From Candidatus Hydrogenedentota bacterium (GTDB lineage Bacteria; Hydrogenedentota; Hydrogenedentia; Hydrogenedentales; CAITNO01), in NCBI GenBank assembly GCA_903822375.1, contig CAIJOU010000590.1:1-36599 (forward strand): a stretch of 36,599 nt of DNA, read 5' to 3'. This document shows, piece by piece, positions 6,227-11,815 of the stretch (position 1 is its first letter; each line of letters opens with the position of its first letter). The notes under the pieces were generated by a model, which saw nothing but the letters and a program-made list of their open reading frames with translations, was not told the origin of the DNA and made no database searches. The position numbers were made by a program, and so were the translations under genes.

Positions 6227-6852
6227 GCCTCTGAACCCTGATAAGGACCCGACAAGCGCAGACGGGTCAAGGTTTCAATCACACTGTCTGCTGTTGCAAT
6301 GCCAGGATTGCGCGTCCACCAGTCCAATACCTGCAGCAGCATTCCCACAACACCGTGCGCCGCCACCACGGGATCAATACCGGGAACGATGATGCCGTCG
6401 GCGATTCCCTCGCGCACCCGCAATTCCAGCATGGCGGCCAGGTGTTCCGTGATTTCTGTGCTGACGTTCTTGCGGACCGATTCGGGGTCAAAGAGAATCC
6501 GGCAGAGTCCGGTGTGCGACTCTGCAAAACGCACCAGCACCTCCGTGTGCGCCCGTACGGCTGCCGCCGGGTCCGGTGCGGGGGAGAGCGCCATACGTTG
6601 CAGCGCGCCCATGAGTTCTTCAACGCCCTCGCGCATGATGGCGCGCAGCAGCCCCTGCTTGTCCTTGAAATGAAGATAGAGAGTGCCCACGGCGACCCCG
6701 GCCGCCGTGGCAACATCGGAAGCGCGCGTGTCCGCGACCCCCTGCCTGGCAAAAAGCTCCAGACCCGTCTCCAGCAGGCGCCGCCGGGTTTCAATCCGGC
6801 TACGGTCGCGGGCATTTAGGGCCAGCGCAGCATTTGGATGAATTGAGTTCAC
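6223..6852 (-). CDS. TetR/AcrR family transcriptional regulator
   Basis: HTH: LLETGLELFARQG...DVATAAGVAVGTLYLHFKDKQGL. GTG start at 6852. Confidence 0.93.
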   Translation of the reverse strand: MNSIHPNAALALNARDRSRIETRRRLLETGLELFARQGVADTRASDVATAAGVAVGTLYLHFKDKQGLLRAIMREGVEELMGALQRMALSPAPDPAAAVRAHTEVLVRFAESHTGLCRILFDPESVRKNVSTEITEHLAAMLELRVREGIADGIIVPGIDPVVAAHGVVGMLLQVLDWWTRNPGIATADSVIETLTRLRLSGPYQGSEA

Positions 6853-6887
6853 TGAATAATTATATATTCAGTGGCGCCGGATTGCAA
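6851..6887 (-). promoter_or_regulatory. Sigma70 promoter with overlapping palindromic operator, likely bound by the TetR
   Basis: TTGCAA (6887-6882), 17 bp, TATAAT (6864-6859), 6 bp, GTG. Inverted repeat ACTGAATA-N6-TATTCAGT at 6851-6872. Confidence 0.8.
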
Positions 6888-6998
6888 ATGCGTTTTGTGA
6901 AGTGGATTGGGGGCATGAACGCCCGGCCGGGTGTCAACCTGCTCATTCCGAGGTTCAGGAACTCGCGAAACCACGGCCGTTTCGCGAAGTGTGAAGTG

Positions 6999-7053
6999 CT
7001 TTGCCAAAGCTTTACCAAGCCATTGCCGGAACTTCGTATGCGATTGGCACAAT
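6999..7053 (+). promoter_or_regulatory. Regulated promoter copy A (4 heptamers at 11-bp period plus extended -10)
   Basis: CTTTGCC 6999, CTTTACC 7010, CATTGCC 7021, CTTCGTA 7032, 9 bp ending TGG, CACAAT 7048-7053. Confidence 0.7.
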
Positions 7054-7134
7054 GAGGCTCACGAACTGGCCGGCGTTGACCATGACGTTTGCGGCTAACT
7101 TCCCGGGACAGTATCCAGAAAGGACTTCTTTTCC

Positions 7135-7326
7135 ATGAGTACGGTCATCGAATCTTACCCAGGCACGATAAACGCCTGCAGCACCGTGACGGAGGGTGAT
7201 GAACTGGCCCGGAAGTTGGAGAAGGTATTCCAGATATTCCGCCGCGCACAGGAAGACTGGGCCATGAAACACGACCCGGGACAGTCAGCCGGAGGCATGG
7301 AGAAGGATTCCGGCTGTTCTGCCTGA
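7135..7326 (+). CDS. Small hypothetical protein (63 aa)
   Basis: AAAGGA upstream of the ATG; first ORF after promoter A; no recognisable motif. Confidence 0.5.
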   Translation: MSTVIESYPGTINACSTVTEGDELARKLEKVFQIFRRAQEDWAMKHDPGQSAGGMEKDSGCSA

Positions 7327-7422
7327 ATTGACCGGGGAGCGGAGGACTGCGACCAACTTGGGCCGCTTATGGAACCCGGCAGTCAACCACCGCTGCCAAA
7401 CAGCGGGAGCGAGGTGACGAAC

Positions 7423-7713
7423 ATGAACCACGCGATGATGACCAGGGACCATGATTCTGAACAACTGCTTCTGTCGCATCTTGAACTGTGCTATTCGGTG
7501 GCGCTTGCGCTGACCCGCAATGTAAATCTGGCGCTTGCGCTGACGAAAGACACGCTGCTGTGGGCCTGGCAGCGCAACGACGGCTCGTGGGATGAGGATA
7601 TCATGAAAAAATCGCTCTTGCGCGAGTTGCGCGACAGGTATTTGCGCGACTACCAGCTTGCGGGCGGCCGGGGCGCAGCCGGTGAACAACGTCTTCCGAA
7701 AGTGGAAGAGTGA
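7423..7713 (+). CDS. Degenerate ECF sigma factor-like protein, region 2 only (96 aa)
   Basis: RBS GAGGTG before ATG 7423. EQLLLSHLELCYSVALALTRNVNLALALTKDTLLWAW...MKKSLLRELRDRYL aligns by eye with ECF sigma region 2; there is no region 4. Confidence 0.65.
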   Translation: MNHAMMTRDHDSEQLLLSHLELCYSVALALTRNVNLALALTKDTLLWAWQRNDGSWDEDIMKKSLLRELRDRYLRDYQLAGGRGAAGEQRLPKVEE

Positions 7714-8018
7714 AGGACTACGCGGAAGGTCCCGTCGGCGGCAGGCTCGGCGTGCGCATTGGACCCGAATGGACAGAGGTGCGTATTCCACGCGCAGAGA
7801 CGGAAGAGCAGCATTCTTCCCTGGAAGAGGAACTCCTGTCATACCTTGACCGCCATTCCGCAACCACGTGGGCCATAGACCTGTCCGAACATGTGGGCGG
7901 CGTGACTCTCGCACTTGCCGGAATGCTTGCCCGCTTCCGGGAAGAGGCGCGGCGACGGGGTTGCGAGGTGAGGTACTCGGGGCTGAGGCAGGACTGCGTA
8001 TCCTGCCTGGCCGAATAG
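7710..8018 (+). CDS. STAS-like (anti-anti-sigma/MlaB-like) small protein
   Basis: GTGA overlap with the upstream gene. WAIDLSEHVGGVTLALAGMLARFREEARRRGCEVRYSGL resembles the STAS core. Confidence 0.55.
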   Translation: MKDYAEGPVGGRLGVRIGPEWTEVRIPRAETEEQHSSLEEELLSYLDRHSATTWAIDLSEHVGGVTLALAGMLARFREEARRRGCEVRYSGLRQDCVSCLAE

Positions 8019-8169
8019 GAGGGGGAACAGCACGGCATCTTTCGCCTGAACGGCAGCGCCTTGGGGGGCTGCATCGGCAGTGCTGGCGGATTGGCCTTGA
8101 TTTTGCATGCGCGAATCTTCAGGTTGCCGCGGCTTCACGGTTCTGAAATGCGAAAATCACCCCATTCTC

Positions 8170-10029
8170 TCACCGCGCAACGCCGCATCCACCCACGATG
8201 GTGATTGACGAATAGAATTCACTGCGCATTATAAAGTTGTAGTACAGGGGGCCGAGGTTCCGGCCAAAAACAATCAGGGGGAGATTGCCCAGCTTCAGGG
8301 CAATCGTATCCTCGACGTCGCCAAAGGGGCATGCGCCCGTGTCGGCCACAAAATCGGAAAGGCGCCCCCTTACAGGCGTGACGCTGAACGACGAGGTCCC
8401 AAAAACGCTGACAAAAGCCTTCCCGGGTATAAAGGACTGGGGGGCGATCCTCTGCGCATTGGGCGATATCCCCGGGAGCAGGAAGAGGTCTTCAAGAGCC
8501 TCGTAGCTGTACAACCAGCCGGTTGCATAGGCCATGTAATAATGCGTTGTCTTGTCGTTCAGGGAGTGGTCGACCGCCGTCAGTTTCCAGCATTGGCACC
8601 CGTTGATTATGAACTCCTCCGAAACCTCCGCGCTGATCCCATCGTTTCCATGGGTTCCCGGCGTCACCCATCTATTGCCGACCGCAAGCGGGTAATAGTC
8701 ACAGATTGAGATGCTCCTCGTGGAGAGCACCAGATTCACCGGAGTGCCCGGAGGCACCAGCGTTCCTTTTGCCGGATCCTGGCCTGTCACGCTGCCTTCT
8801 GGAACGGTGTCACTGTACTGCTCTGTTATCGTGCCCACAGTCAGGCCCGCGCTGGTTACGGTTGCCTGTGCATCCGTCTGGGTTCTTCCTGCCGCATTGG
8901 GCACGGCCACCGGTTGCGGACCCTGTGAAAAAACAAGACTGACCGCAGTACCCGGAATCATGATTATGCCGGCGGCCGGGTCCTGGCCAATCACGCGGCC
9001 TGCAGGCACGGTCACGCTCCACACCTGGTTCACACTGCCCAAGGAAAAACCCGCACCCGTAACCGTCGCCTCCGCATCGGACCGGGTTTTCCCGGCGACA
9101 TCCGGGACGGCCACCGACTGCGGTCCCTGGGAAACAGCCAGGTCAACTGCCGTACCCGGAACTGTCATCGCGTCGGCGGCAGGATTCTGACTTATTACGC
9201 AGCCCGCCGGCACTGTTGCACTGGACCCCGGCACCACACTGCCAATGGTGAAACCCGCGGACACCATTGCGGTTTCGGCATCTGCCTCAGTCCTGCCCAC
9301 CACGTTGGGCACAGCCACCGGTTGCGGCCCCTGCGATACGGTCAGACTAACCGTCGCACCGGGCAACGTGAGCGTTGCCGCTGCCGGATCCTGGCTGATA
9401 ACGTTACCCGCCGCAGTCAACGGGTTGTGGAGTTGTGTCACGGTGCCCACGGTCAGGCCCGCTTCCGTGATAACGGTTTGCGCCTCGGCCCGCACCCGGC
9501 CCACCACGTCGGGCACGACTGCCGGCTGCGGCCCGAGGGAACACAACAGGTCCACACCCGCGCCGGAGGACACGCCCGTCCCCGCTGCCGGGTCTTGGCT
9601 AATCAGGTTGCCCGCGGGAACCGTTGCGCTGTATGCCCACCGGATATTCCCCGGCTTGAGCCCTTCCGGGAGCAGAGTCGCCTGCGCTTGGGACAGCGTG
9701 ATGCCCGTGACGTCGGGAACCGTCATGGAACCCGTCTTGGTGCATCCGCCAACCGTACCGGAAGCAAATGCGTTCAGCAAAGACAAGAACCGTATCACAG
9801 GATTCTGGCTGGTCACGTTGCCGGCGCTTGCCGTCGCCCTGTCCGGCCACCGGATACTTCCCGGCATCAGCCCCTCCAGGAGCAGGGGCATTCCCCCCTG
9901 TGTCTGCGTGATGTTCGTGGGAACGGGAACGAGCATGAAGGCCGGCTGGGAGCATCCTCCAACCACAAAGTATGCAGCCAGTACCATCAGCACCAAGCCC
10001 AAATACCGACACCTGACGAGAATGCACAT
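8170..10029 (-). CDS. Multi-PASTA domain putative lipoprotein (5 PASTA repeats plus an unknown C-terminal domain)
   Basis: ATG 10029 after GAGGAG; hydrophobic stretch ending VGGC; five repeats of about 68 aa (VPDVTG/VPDVVG/VPNVVG/VPDVAG/VPNAAG...SQDPAAG); C-terminal domain begins DYYPLAVGNRW. Confidence 0.9.
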   Translation of the reverse strand: MCILVRCRYLGLVLMVLAAYFVVGGCSQPAFMLVPVPTNITQTQGGMPLLLEGLMPGSIRWPDRATASAGNVTSQNPVIRFLSLLNAFASGTVGGCTKTGSMTVPDVTGITLSQAQATLLPEGLKPGNIRWAYSATVPAGNLISQDPAAGTGVSSGAGVDLLCSLGPQPAVVPDVVGRVRAEAQTVITEAGLTVGTVTQLHNPLTAAGNVISQDPAAATLTLPGATVSLTVSQGPQPVAVPNVVGRTEADAETAMVSAGFTIGSVVPGSSATVPAGCVISQNPAADAMTVPGTAVDLAVSQGPQSVAVPDVAGKTRSDAEATVTGAGFSLGSVNQVWSVTVPAGRVIGQDPAAGIIMIPGTAVSLVFSQGPQPVAVPNAAGRTQTDAQATVTSAGLTVGTITEQYSDTVPEGSVTGQDPAKGTLVPPGTPVNLVLSTRSISICDYYPLAVGNRWVTPGTHGNDGISAEVSEEFIINGCQCWKLTAVDHSLNDKTTHYYMAYATGWLYSYEALEDLFLLPGISPNAQRIAPQSFIPGKAFVSVFGTSSFSVTPVRGRLSDFVADTGACPFGDVEDTIALKLGNLPLIVFGRNLGPLYYNFIMRSEFYSSITIVGGCGVAR

Positions 10030-10190
10030 GCCGTTCTCCTCAGAAAAGCTGTCCCGGCACCTCCACCACAGACACCTTGTTAAGCATGAACGTTCCTTTC
10101 TCGAAGCCTTGGGGCTCACAGTTTAACCTTGGATCCGTGAAGGCTGTCGTAATGACCGCGGCAGCCGCCTGCGGCCGTTTCGCCAGCTTT

Positions 10191-10245
10191 ATTGTGGCAA
10201 AGGCAGGTAAAATTCATGCAAAGGTTTGGCAAATTTTAGGTAAAG
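10191..10245 (-). promoter_or_regulatory. Regulated promoter copy B (PASTA gene)
   Basis: Minus strand: CTTTACC, ATTTGCC, CTTTGCA, TTTTACC at 11-bp period, 9 bp ending TGC, CACAAT (10196-10191). Confidence 0.7.
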
Positions 10246-10300
10246 AAATCCCCTTTCGCAATCAGACGGGCACGGATTGTCGGCCTGAGCGAAGTCCCGC

Positions 10301-10489
10301 TTACTGTCTCAGCCTTTGCACAAACTCGTTGAGAAGTTCCTCGTGCGCCTGATGACCCTTCACACAGCCATAGCGGTCTTGGAGCTTGTCGACAACACTG
10401 CGATGCTTGAAGTAAATGGTCGCCGCGGCGGCAACACAAAGTCGTCCCACGTTCTCCCTGAACTTTCCTAAGGGCTGTTCCCTGTTCAT
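10301..10489 (-). CDS. CsbD/YjbJ-like small stress protein, divergent
   Basis: Strong RBS AGGAGA. MNREQPLGKFRENVG...VVDKLQDRYG...AHEELLNEF resembles YjbJ (MNKDEAGGNWKQFKG...LVGKIQERYG...AEKEVVDW). Confidence 0.6.
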   Translation of the reverse strand: MNREQPLGKFRENVGRLCVAAAATIYFKHRSVVDKLQDRYGCVKGHQAHEELLNEFVQRLRQ

Positions 10490-10584
10490 GGTTTGTCTCC
10501 TATAAGACTGAACTTCATCTATCCACGCCCGTAAAGGCTGGTACCGTGACTGCCACGGTCACCCGGGGGCATTTCTTCAACCTC

Positions 10585-10639
10585 ATTGTGCCAAACGCAG
10601 GTAAAGTCCCGGCAAAGGTGCGGCAACGATTGGGCAAAG
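10585..10639 (-). promoter_or_regulatory. Regulated promoter copy C (CsbD-like gene)
   Basis: Minus strand: CTTTGCC, CGTTGCC, CTTTGCC, CTTTACC at 11-bp period, 9 bp ending TGG, CACAAT (10590-10585). Confidence 0.72.
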
Positions 10640-10665
10640 AATTCCGCTTTGCGAAGGGTGTGATT

Positions 10666-10720
10666 CTTTGCCAAAGCTTTACGCGCATTTTGCCCACGCT
10701 TCATGTCCCCCTGCTAACCT
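10666..10720 (+). promoter_or_regulatory. Regulated promoter copy D (BON gene)
   Basis: CTTTGCC 10666, CTTTACG 10677, TTTTGCC 10688, CTTCATG 10699, 9 bp ending TGC, TAACCT 10715-10720. Confidence 0.68.
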
Positions 10721-10830
10721 CCATGCGTGGCCGGCTTGTCGCCGACGCATGGATGTTGGCGCGCCCGCCCGGACGCGCCACTGGAACCGGGGCAATTCCC
10801 CACAAACCAAGAATGAATCGAGGAAACACA

Positions 10831-11610
10831 ATGACACTGAAAGCAATGTATCCCCTGGCGTTTGCGGCGGCTGTGGCCGCACTGTTCGTGGTCTGCATGC
10901 CCGCGCGCGCGTCGGGTGCCGATGACGGGATCAAGTCGTCGTTCACGCAGAGCTACGTCTATAAGACCTATCTCAAGGACGACGCGGTCAAGATCGAGGC
11001 CAAAGACGGCGTCGTCACGCTGACCGGAACGGTGGCCGAGGAATCCCACAAGAACCTGGCGCAGGAGACCGCCGCGAACCTGGCCGGGGTCAGCCGCGTG
11101 GACAATCAACTCACGACCAAAACCCCGGTCTCCGCCGAACTCTCGGATGCCTGGGTCACGGGAAAAGTGAAACTCGCGCTGCTGTTCCATCGCAGTGTCA
11201 ACGTCGTCAAGACCAACGTCGACGTGAAAGACAGAATCGTGACGCTGAAAGGCGAAGCGTCAAGCGTCGCCCAGAAGGAACTGACCACGGAATATGTGAA
11301 GGATGTCGCAGGCGTGAAAGGGGTGAAGAACGAAATGACGGTGGCGGCGACTCCGGAACCGCAGACGAGAACCGCAGGCGAGAAAATCGATGACGCTTCC
11401 ATCAGCGCACAGGTCAAGTTGGCACTGCTGACCCATCAATCGACCAGTGCCGCCAAGACCAAGGTTCAGACACGGGACGGCGTGGTCACGTTGACGGGCA
11501 TTGCAAAGAATGCGGCCGAGAAGACCCTTGTCACCAAGCTGGTCGAAGACATTCAGGGGGTGACCAGCGTGAAGAACGAAATGACCGTCGAAGAAGTCAA
11601 AACCAAGTAG
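10831..11610 (+). CDS. OsmY-like periplasmic protein with three BON domains
   Basis: ATG 10831 after GAGGAA; signal peptide; three repeats (KDGVVTLTGTV..GVSRVDNQL; KDRIVTLKG..GVKGVKNEM; RDGVVTLTG..GVTSVKNEM). Confidence 0.92.
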   Translation: MTLKAMYPLAFAAAVAALFVVCMPARASGADDGIKSSFTQSYVYKTYLKDDAVKIEAKDGVVTLTGTVAEESHKNLAQETAANLAGVSRVDNQLTTKTPVSAELSDAWVTGKVKLALLFHRSVNVVKTNVDVKDRIVTLKGEASSVAQKELTTEYVKDVAGVKGVKNEMTVAATPEPQTRTAGEKIDDASISAQVKLALLTHQSTSAAKTKVQTRDGVVTLTGIAKNAAEKTLVTKLVEDIQGVTSVKNEMTVEEVKTK

Positions 11611-11621
11611 ACTGACCAATA

Positions 11622-11689
11622 GCCTCCGGCTGGCACGAGGGTGCCAGCCGGAGGCAAAGGATACCTGTCCGAAACATGGGTCGGACAGG
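11622..11689. terminator. Two hairpins between the convergent BON and ADH genes, probable terminator region
   Basis: Perfect 15-bp stem GCCTCCGGCTGGCAC-gagg-GTGCCAGCCGGAGGC (11622-11655) and 9-bp stem CCTGTCCGA/TCGGACAGG (11664-11689). U-tracts are weak. Confidence 0.55.
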
Positions 11690-11815
11690 GGTTTGGCAAA
11701 GGCGCTGTCGTCTGGAGAACCCAAGGCCCGTGTCCATTGCGCCGCTGCCACCGGGGCATGTTCGCGCACATACTGCGGGCGGCCGCCGATGTTTCTGGCA
11801 GGGTGTGGTTCCCCT

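Follow-up and report, generated by a model that had tools for sequence, protein, structure and literature searches.

We describe a family of promoter elements in an uncultivated bacterium of the phylum Hydrogenedentota, starting from four copies on a 36,599-nucleotide stretch of DNA (contig C590, called the window below) of a metagenome-assembled genome (MAG) of 6.25 Mb in 967 contigs (61.5% G+C, 82.7% complete). Each of the four elements, arrays A to D, carries four heptamers (boxes) of consensus CTTTRCC ahead of a -10-like hexamer. We consider it probable that A to D are activator-dependent promoters of a phylum-wide, general-stress-type regulon, and that they are likely bound by an OmpR/PhoB-family response regulator of the type encoded on contig C832 of the same genome. 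Hydrogenedentota is a widespread phylum, and our search of the literature (titles and the starts of abstracts) returned no study of gene regulation in it. The arrays provide a sharply defined cis-element with about 20 promoters per genome, and the candidate regulator, its kinase and a coherent set of stress genes make the proposal directly testable.

The layout is the same in all four arrays. The heptamers follow each other at an exact 11-bp period (the unit being a heptamer plus 4 bp), and after the last of them come 9 bp, ending in TGG or TGC, and the -10-like hexamer, which is CACAAT in A, B and C and TAACCT in D. The positions are as follows, with scores from the 55-column position weight matrix (PWM) introduced further on:

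6999..7053, plus strand: array A; boxes at 6999-7005, 7010-7016, 7021-7027 and 7032-7038, TG at 7045-7046; 66.4 bits; model R1 E 1.5e-11
7048-7053, plus strand: -10-like CACAAT of the array A promoter; predicted start near 7060
10191..10245, minus strand: array B; -10-like CACAAT at 10196-10191; predicted start near 10184; 65.8 bits
10585..10639, minus strand: array C; -10-like CACAAT at 10590-10585; predicted start near 10578; 63.7 bits
10666..10720, plus strand: array D; -10-like TAACCT at 10715-10720; predicted start near 10727; 46.7 bits
6981..6988, no strand assigned: TTCGCGAA, upstream of A; a local feature outside the family consensus
10255-10261: TTGCGAA motif similar to TTCGCGAA, before B
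10649-10655: TTGCGAA motif similar to TTCGCGAA, in the spacer common to C and D

Direct inspection bears out the coordinates, strands and 4x11-bp layout that an earlier note on this DNA had given for A to D, and the strings it described as shared by A and D and by A and C both lie at equal offsets. Its hand count of 52 of 70 for the ungapped likeness of B and C comes to 53 of 70 in the best frame. Compared pairwise over their 55-nt cores, the four arrays agree at 28-42 of 55 positions, while about 14.5 would be expected from composition. C and D are divergent, with a 26-bp spacer between them. The note had also seen a TTCGCGAA-like motif ahead of each array; a loose form does precede all four arrays of the window, but across the family TTCG[CG]GAA was present, near -22, at 6 of the 115 strong sites, and we rejected it as a family feature. 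An Rfam scan of the window at gathering thresholds returned no family, and the sequencing runs that match window positions 6800-11700 are DNA runs only, none RNA. The habitats in which this DNA turns up are lake water or peat.

To see how far the element recurs, the genome was scanned with a matrix of 7 columns, built from the 16 heptamers of the window only and summed over four units, much as the earlier note had proposed. At 24 bits or more there are 29 matches at a period of 11, compared with 3, 3, 1, 2 and 0 at periods of 8, 9, 10, 12 and 13, and the period-11 matches include 16 loci beyond the window that are alike in their full architecture. Columns that this matrix does not use are conserved as well: over 20 aligned sites, A9 and A10 are present in all 20, T41 in 18, G48 in 18 and T55 in 20, box 4 being the least conserved of the four boxes. 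A 55-column matrix made from these 20 sites finds 21 distinct sites in the genome, at 43.6-75.6 bits, one of which (on contig C208) lies outside the training set, and D is the lowest-scoring of the four window arrays. Below the 21 come two shifted registers of one site and then a next match at 14.3 bits, and five column-permuted matrices give at most 1 match each, with a maximum of 14.0 bits. Every one of the 21 sites has four units. The 14 matches that the heptamer matrix gave at a period of 14 were rejected as arrays, being unrelated 7-bp tandem repeats. Repeats of this length (of the CTTCACC, CTTCGTC and CATTGCC kinds) occur in intergenic stretches of contigs C761, C319, C534, C791 and C549, often near contig ends.

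The arrays of the genome point at genes. A same-strand open reading frame (ORF) with a positive codon-usage score starts within 350 nt downstream at 19 of the 21 sites, where the choice of downstream ORF is heuristic and some short ORF calls are probably wrong; at the site on C262 a 675-aa secreted protein starts at +414, and at that on C742 the contig ends 255 nt downstream. The 150-bp flanks are alike only for divergent neighbour arrays or paralogous downstream genes, and a comparison of the flanks of the arrays found no terminal repeats and no general flank homology. Because they point at genes and share no flank homology, we conclude that the arrays are not a mobile repeat. The earlier note had named random orientation as the mark of a REP/MITE-type repeat (repetitive extragenic palindrome or miniature inverted-repeat transposable element). 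Such a repeat, with no promoter role, would explain many copies per genome and the occasional divergent pair, but it would leave unexplained the consistent orientation, the -10 at a fixed distance and the conservation of arrays before orthologous genes across families, and we give it next to no credence. Stop-free frames overlap some arrays and are upstream extensions or antisense mirrors of real genes. One of them, a 589-aa minus-strand frame over the array at locus L003, has no Pfam match and mirrors a plus-strand pair of receiver and kinase genes; we took it as an artefact. The best-scoring array of the genome, at this locus (L003 8134-9891, contig C627 of the present genome, G000), leads into a receiver-only gene that has an internal deletion (116 aa); behind that gene lies a membrane sensor kinase.

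Beyond this genome, we searched 135 Hydrogenedentota genomes at E <= 0.01 with a sequence-only model of the 21 sites. The 37 of 135 genomes that the model matches belong to 5 of 15 families; a single genome has up to 20 sites, often gathered in islands. In a control phylum (that of a Tunturiibacter genome) it gives a single partial match in each of 2 genomes out of 136, scoring 17.9 and 19.6 bits, and 5 genomes of other phyla gave no match. Since the control phylum does yield these two partial matches, the single marginal matches in a few Hydrogenedentota genomes (E around 1e-3) may be false.

What lies downstream of the boxes can be read independently of the boxes themselves. A boxes-only matrix (columns 1-40), run on the loci fetched from other Hydrogenedentota genomes, gives 120 sites, at which the columns it does not use show G48 in 111, T55 in 115, A51 in 82, T50 in 73 and TG at 47-48 in 58. 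Given this conservation of unused columns, the downstream element reads TGnTAnnnT and keeps a fixed distance, which makes it an extended -10 of the housekeeping type. The fourth heptamer ends 9 bp before the hexamer, and the lack of a consensus -35, noticed earlier for the four arrays of the window, holds across the family. The -10 comes in two flavours, TCTGGnnnAAT and ACAGGTACCMT, the latter mainly before receiver-only genes.

General stress regulons in other bacteria are run by alternative sigma factors: sigma-B in Bacillus, EcfG/PhyR in Alphaproteobacteria and sigma-S in E. coli. By analogy an alternative sigma factor could read the present promoters, with the repeats as its extended recognition or as UP-like elements, and a STAS protein and a sigma-region-2-like fragment are indeed encoded in the unit behind A. 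A sigma recognition pattern, however, does not consist of four equal repeats at one helical period, and TGnTAnnnT is of the housekeeping type; we regard this explanation as very improbable.

The candidate regulator was found among the proteins of the genome that carry the DNA-binding domain PF00486. There are 7 matches: five OmpR-type regulators (the one on contig C863 truncated), a short fragment on C674 and the tail of a helicase. SARP activators of Streptomyces likewise bind heptamers repeated directly every 11 bp, some 8 bp from the -10, so the repeat geometry is alike, but the PF00486 search found no SARP-like protein in the genome; its sole large PF00486 protein (on C782) is a DEAD-box helicase without BTAD, and a SARP-type regulator was rejected on this basis, in a genome that is 82.7% complete. 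The candidate is:

contig C832, locus L012 2704-3429, minus strand: candidate regulator, 241 aa, Response_reg plus Trans_reg_C, directly after a histidine kinase gene

Along the minus strand of C832 the order is the C-terminus of the kinase, the regulator, a five-box array (four scored units and an extra box upstream) and a receiver-only gene. An array thus adjoins a kinase-regulator pair. Convergent to this cluster are dnaJ and the end of dnaK, and contig C150, which holds an array-driven start of dnaK, probably joins C832.

Arrays lie near the regulator in other genomes of the phylum too. Orthologues of the regulator, 62-89% identical, are present in about 22 genomes of the phylum, and the best match outside it is 45% identical. 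Within 1.5 kb on either side of the regulator, an array of at least 20 bits occurs in 16 of 30 orthologue loci (about 100 kb in total), while the 76 regulator loci taken from other phyla have no array, even at 15 bits or more. The same kinase core stands beside the regulator in at least 22 of the 30 loci; that of genome G091 is a PAS-HisKA-HATPase protein of 582 aa. Five- and six-box arrays adjoin the regulator gene, and in larger islands (G091:C8, G082:C30, G100:C130 and G106:C1) the regulator lies among many arrays. In G009, a possible case of autoregulation, a gap of about 350 bp separates an array-driven DUF11 gene from the kinase. Over the 135 genomes, array and regulator (at least 50% identity) occur together in 28, the array only in 9, the regulator only in 8 and neither in 90, counts in which related genomes are not independent.

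The earlier note had inferred that an OmpR-type regulator encoded outside the window controls a general-stress or envelope regulon through a Pho-box-like geometry. This gains computational support from the 21 promoters of this genome, the 37 of 135 genomes with arrays, the stress-type genes behind them and the regulator that adjoins them.

As for its affinities, the regulator is closest among NCBIfam equivalogs to RpaB of cyanobacteria (NF045944, 186.5 bits, cut-off 330), followed by MtrA (183.8, cut-off 300), TIGR02154 for PhoB (179.7, cut-off 296.2) and a second PhoB family, NF053854 (155.8, cut-off 270). It reaches the cut-off of no NCBIfam equivalog, and since the RpaB score is far below its own, the regulator is no RpaB orthologue. 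Among solved structures the best relative is MtrA (E 1.2e-43), and PhoP matches at E 2.7e-36. The RpaB half-site is TTTACA-like and resembles the TTTACC of the arrays, which differ in their 11-bp period and four units. In excerpts of PMC3264485, which give no Rre1 binding site, Hik34-Rre1 is a system of a similar type, in which a PAS-type kinase and an OmpR-type regulator control stress genes, htpG being named. A second kinase (372 aa) of the present genome is followed by only the DNA-binding half of a copy of the regulator (L180 145-1636, on C863; residues 111-241, 85% identical), which could be a truncated paralogue or an assembly join.

Several findings weigh against the regulator as the binder. 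Nine array-bearing genomes show no orthologue of it, and in the five that were rechecked (G010, G026, G027, G107 and G114) the best identity is 37-42%. Two of these, G026 (92% complete, 4 arrays) and G027 (82%, 3 arrays), have one canonical OmpR-family regulator each, 42% identical to the candidate, and on G027:C288 the stretch of about 1 kb that comes after the orthologous kaiC-kaiB-kinase operon holds no regulator gene. The regulator may be absent from the genus of these two. Eight genomes have a regulator of 50-63% identity and no array match. Box 4 is degenerate in D and in several further sites. Finally, adjacency to arrays would be expected equally if the regulator were a mere member of the regulon.

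These points are what a different explanation would build on: some other tandem-binding regulator binds the arrays, and the co-located OmpR-family protein is a regulon member only. Arrays in G026, G027 and G114 whose assemblies have no orthologue, and the G027 kinase operon that lacks a regulator gene behind it, would then be natural, and any member would come to lie near arrays through the islands of co-regulated genes. Yet in the annotated loci no other DNA-binding protein recurs near arrays, and the only other Trans_reg_C match in those genomes is weak and lies in the tail of an ORF of about 900 aa, which in G000 is a DEAD-box helicase. Direct repeats at an 11-bp period abutting the -10 are, moreover, the signature of OmpR/PhoB-type winged-helix proteins (from general background and from excerpts of PMC11825685). 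The genomes without an orthologue are fragmented MAGs, and since G026 lacks even the kinase that G027 has, assembly gaps play a part. We therefore judge another binder unlikely. In the gene-free kilobase after the kinase of G027:C288, a pair of inverted repeats of about 20 nt lies some 190 bp apart (L186 ~1150-1340) and looks like the remnant of a small mobile element at the expected place of the regulator.

How might the C832-type regulator work at these promoters? Relative to the predicted starts, the boxes lie at about -61 to -22 and all face one side of the helix, boxes 3 and 4 covering the -35 position and part of the spacer, ahead of an extended -10 (TGnTAnnnT) with no usable -35. Four copies of one OmpR/PhoB-family regulator would bind as two head-to-tail dimers, and the phosphorylated, promoter-proximal dimer would replace the -35 contact and recruit RNA polymerase. 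Upstream of this step, the PAS-HisKA-HATPase kinase paired with the regulator would pass on a presumed stress signal, and arrays of five or six boxes might take up three dimers. We read the array as a dock for two dimers because of the position of the boxes over the -35 and because of the precedent of PhoP and GlnR in M. tuberculosis (excerpts of PMC11825685). As described there, PhoP dimers bind head to tail on 2, 4 or 6 sites, with a downstream dimer that overlaps the -35 and displaces the contact of sigma region 4, and the GlnR complex is a similar tetramer. The likeness to the 4PhoP-TAC and GlnR-TAC complexes, as far as these excerpts go, thus consists in an OmpR/PhoB-family regulator, four direct-repeat sites and a proximal dimer over the -35 (PMC11825685). 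Unlike those systems, the present one has CTTTRCC boxes and a regulon of stress type, not of virulence or nitrogen, and belongs to an uncultivated phylum.

The position of the boxes invites the opposite reading too, in which the same regulator represses by occluding the -35 and spacer and is released under stress. Protein bound at -61 to -22 can block RNA polymerase, and PhoP also forms a repression complex (excerpts of PMC11825685). Repression, however, does not require a constant spacing from the -10, whereas 115 of 120 sites hold the register, and promoters with no -35 consensus and weak hexamers (CACAAT, TACCCT) with TGn are typical of activator dependence. We think repression quite unlikely.

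The E. coli pho box has the same geometry as the arrays, a 7+4-bp direct repeat at an 11-bp period that stops about 10 bp short of the -10 and comes without a -35. This raises the question of whether the arrays are simply the Pho boxes of a phosphate-starvation regulon. They differ in the heptamer, which is CTGTCAT for PhoB, and in having usually four units (some sites have five or six). Among the downstream ORFs that were annotated or read (128 called), genes for phosphate uptake or phosphatases were not seen, and the regulator scores 179.7 bits against the 296.2 of the PhoB equivalog, leaving this explanation scarcely credible. For comparison, excerpts of PMC11126600 give cyanobacterial PhoB/SphR three tandem repeats with a core of TTAA.

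Now we consider the genes that the arrays appear to drive. The loci we fetched are array-rich loci and regulator loci, not a random sample, and at 20 bits or more they hold 144 distinct sites with 128 downstream ORFs. These ORFs fall into clusters of receiver-only proteins of about 150-170 aa (28), DUF3309 peptides (15), Ig-like or ice-binding-like lipoproteins (5), other receiver-bearing proteins (5), YflT (3), DUF374 (3) and CsbD (3). Pfam, run on part of the 128 (further ones were read from their first residues), identifies DnaK, DnaJ, CsbD, BON, DUF3309, YflT, PRC-barrel, KaiC and rubrerythrin, as well as Band 7, OmpA, Transgly_assoc, a sugar nucleotidyltransferase and hybrid PAS/GAF and MASE3 kinases. 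The target on C208, read by eye, is a glycine-zipper lipoprotein. Orthologous BON, receiver-only and DUF3309 genes in different families have kept their arrays upstream. Judged by its families, the downstream set resembles that of a general stress response, the shared promoter pointing to co-regulation.

With the stress regulons run by sigma factors it shares CsbD, BON/OsmY-like, DUF3309, YflT, PRC-barrel, Transgly_assoc, an OsmB-like lipoprotein and chaperones, and also the many receiver-only proteins and sensor kinases that feed in. Unlike in those regulons, control here appears to pass through a DNA-binding response regulator on a housekeeping-type -10; general-stress genes such as those for CsbD, BON, DUF3309, YflT and chaperones appear to be wired to a two-component regulator and not to an alternative sigma factor. 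Across the phylum, the motif offers a means of annotating stress genes that have no assigned function.

Array-driven units with kai genes are found in two genomes, as kaiC-kaiB-kaiB-kinase-regulator in G100 and as receiver-only-kaiC-kaiB-kinase in G027. A bolder and more doubtful version of the mechanism, possible in our view but not one we would expect to hold, would have the stress response run by a response-regulator tetramer on a housekeeping promoter, with a KaiC-KaiB module feeding the PAS kinase. If so, a clock-like or energy-state timer would gate stress genes in a non-photosynthetic, uncultivated phylum, and the array-driven receiver-only proteins and hybrid kinases would make up a feedback phosphorelay. 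On G100:C130 (L156 2471-8143) the genes behind the array are tightly packed into one minus-strand operon, with kaiC (581 aa), two copies of kaiB, the gene of a 749-aa PAS kinase and that of the OmpR-family regulator.

Returning to the window, the genes behind A to D are:

7135..8018, plus strand: unit behind A; 63-aa ORF 7135-7326, 114-aa ORF 7369-7713, 102-aa STAS protein 7710-8018
8170..10029, minus strand: target of B; lipoprotein with five PASTA repeats (PASTA E 4.2e-70, 5 stretches); leader about 155 nt
10301..10489, minus strand: target of C; 62-aa ORF, no family match, positive codon-usage score
10831..11610, plus strand: target of D; secreted protein with three BON domains (BON E 3.4e-43, 3 stretches)

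The PASTA lipoprotein and the BON gene are thus as the earlier note had them. Its CsbD-like gene behind C is not upheld: the 62-aa ORF has no match in Pfam up to E 5, CsbD included. Of its sigma-like/STAS trio behind A, the STAS part stands through a STAS_2 match of the 102-aa protein (E 1.7e-5, under the Pfam cut-off), and the sigma-like part comes down to a weak ECF-sigma region-2-like NCBIfam match of the 114-aa ORF (E 7e-5).

Orthologues of the BON gene occur at 4 loci in 3 other genomes, all with a same-strand array upstream, at distances of 110, 405, 935 and 1,256 nt; a CsbD or DUF3309 gene intervenes in the two farthest. One of the four loci repeats the divergent C/D pair. Because BON orthologues are rare, element D could be footprinted on few sequences only. 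At L175 (G089:C1006:1-2132), in a genome from another family, a BON gene 91% identical to that of the window stands beside the same divergent pair of arrays, which suggests that the island was transferred within the phylum or that the binning is in error.

The start codon and lipobox of the PASTA protein were read from its translation. The protein (8170-10029) contains neither a kinase nor a penicillin-binding domain, which is unusual for PASTA repeats. In the unit behind A, the 63-aa ORF has a homologue in G082, again behind an array (cluster T82/T124). The 114-aa ORF is translationally coupled to the small STAS protein (7369-8018), and the two may be a partner-switching fragment under array control, to judge by their weak family matches. 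Upstream of A, on the opposite strand, are a TetR gene and an outer-membrane efflux gene.

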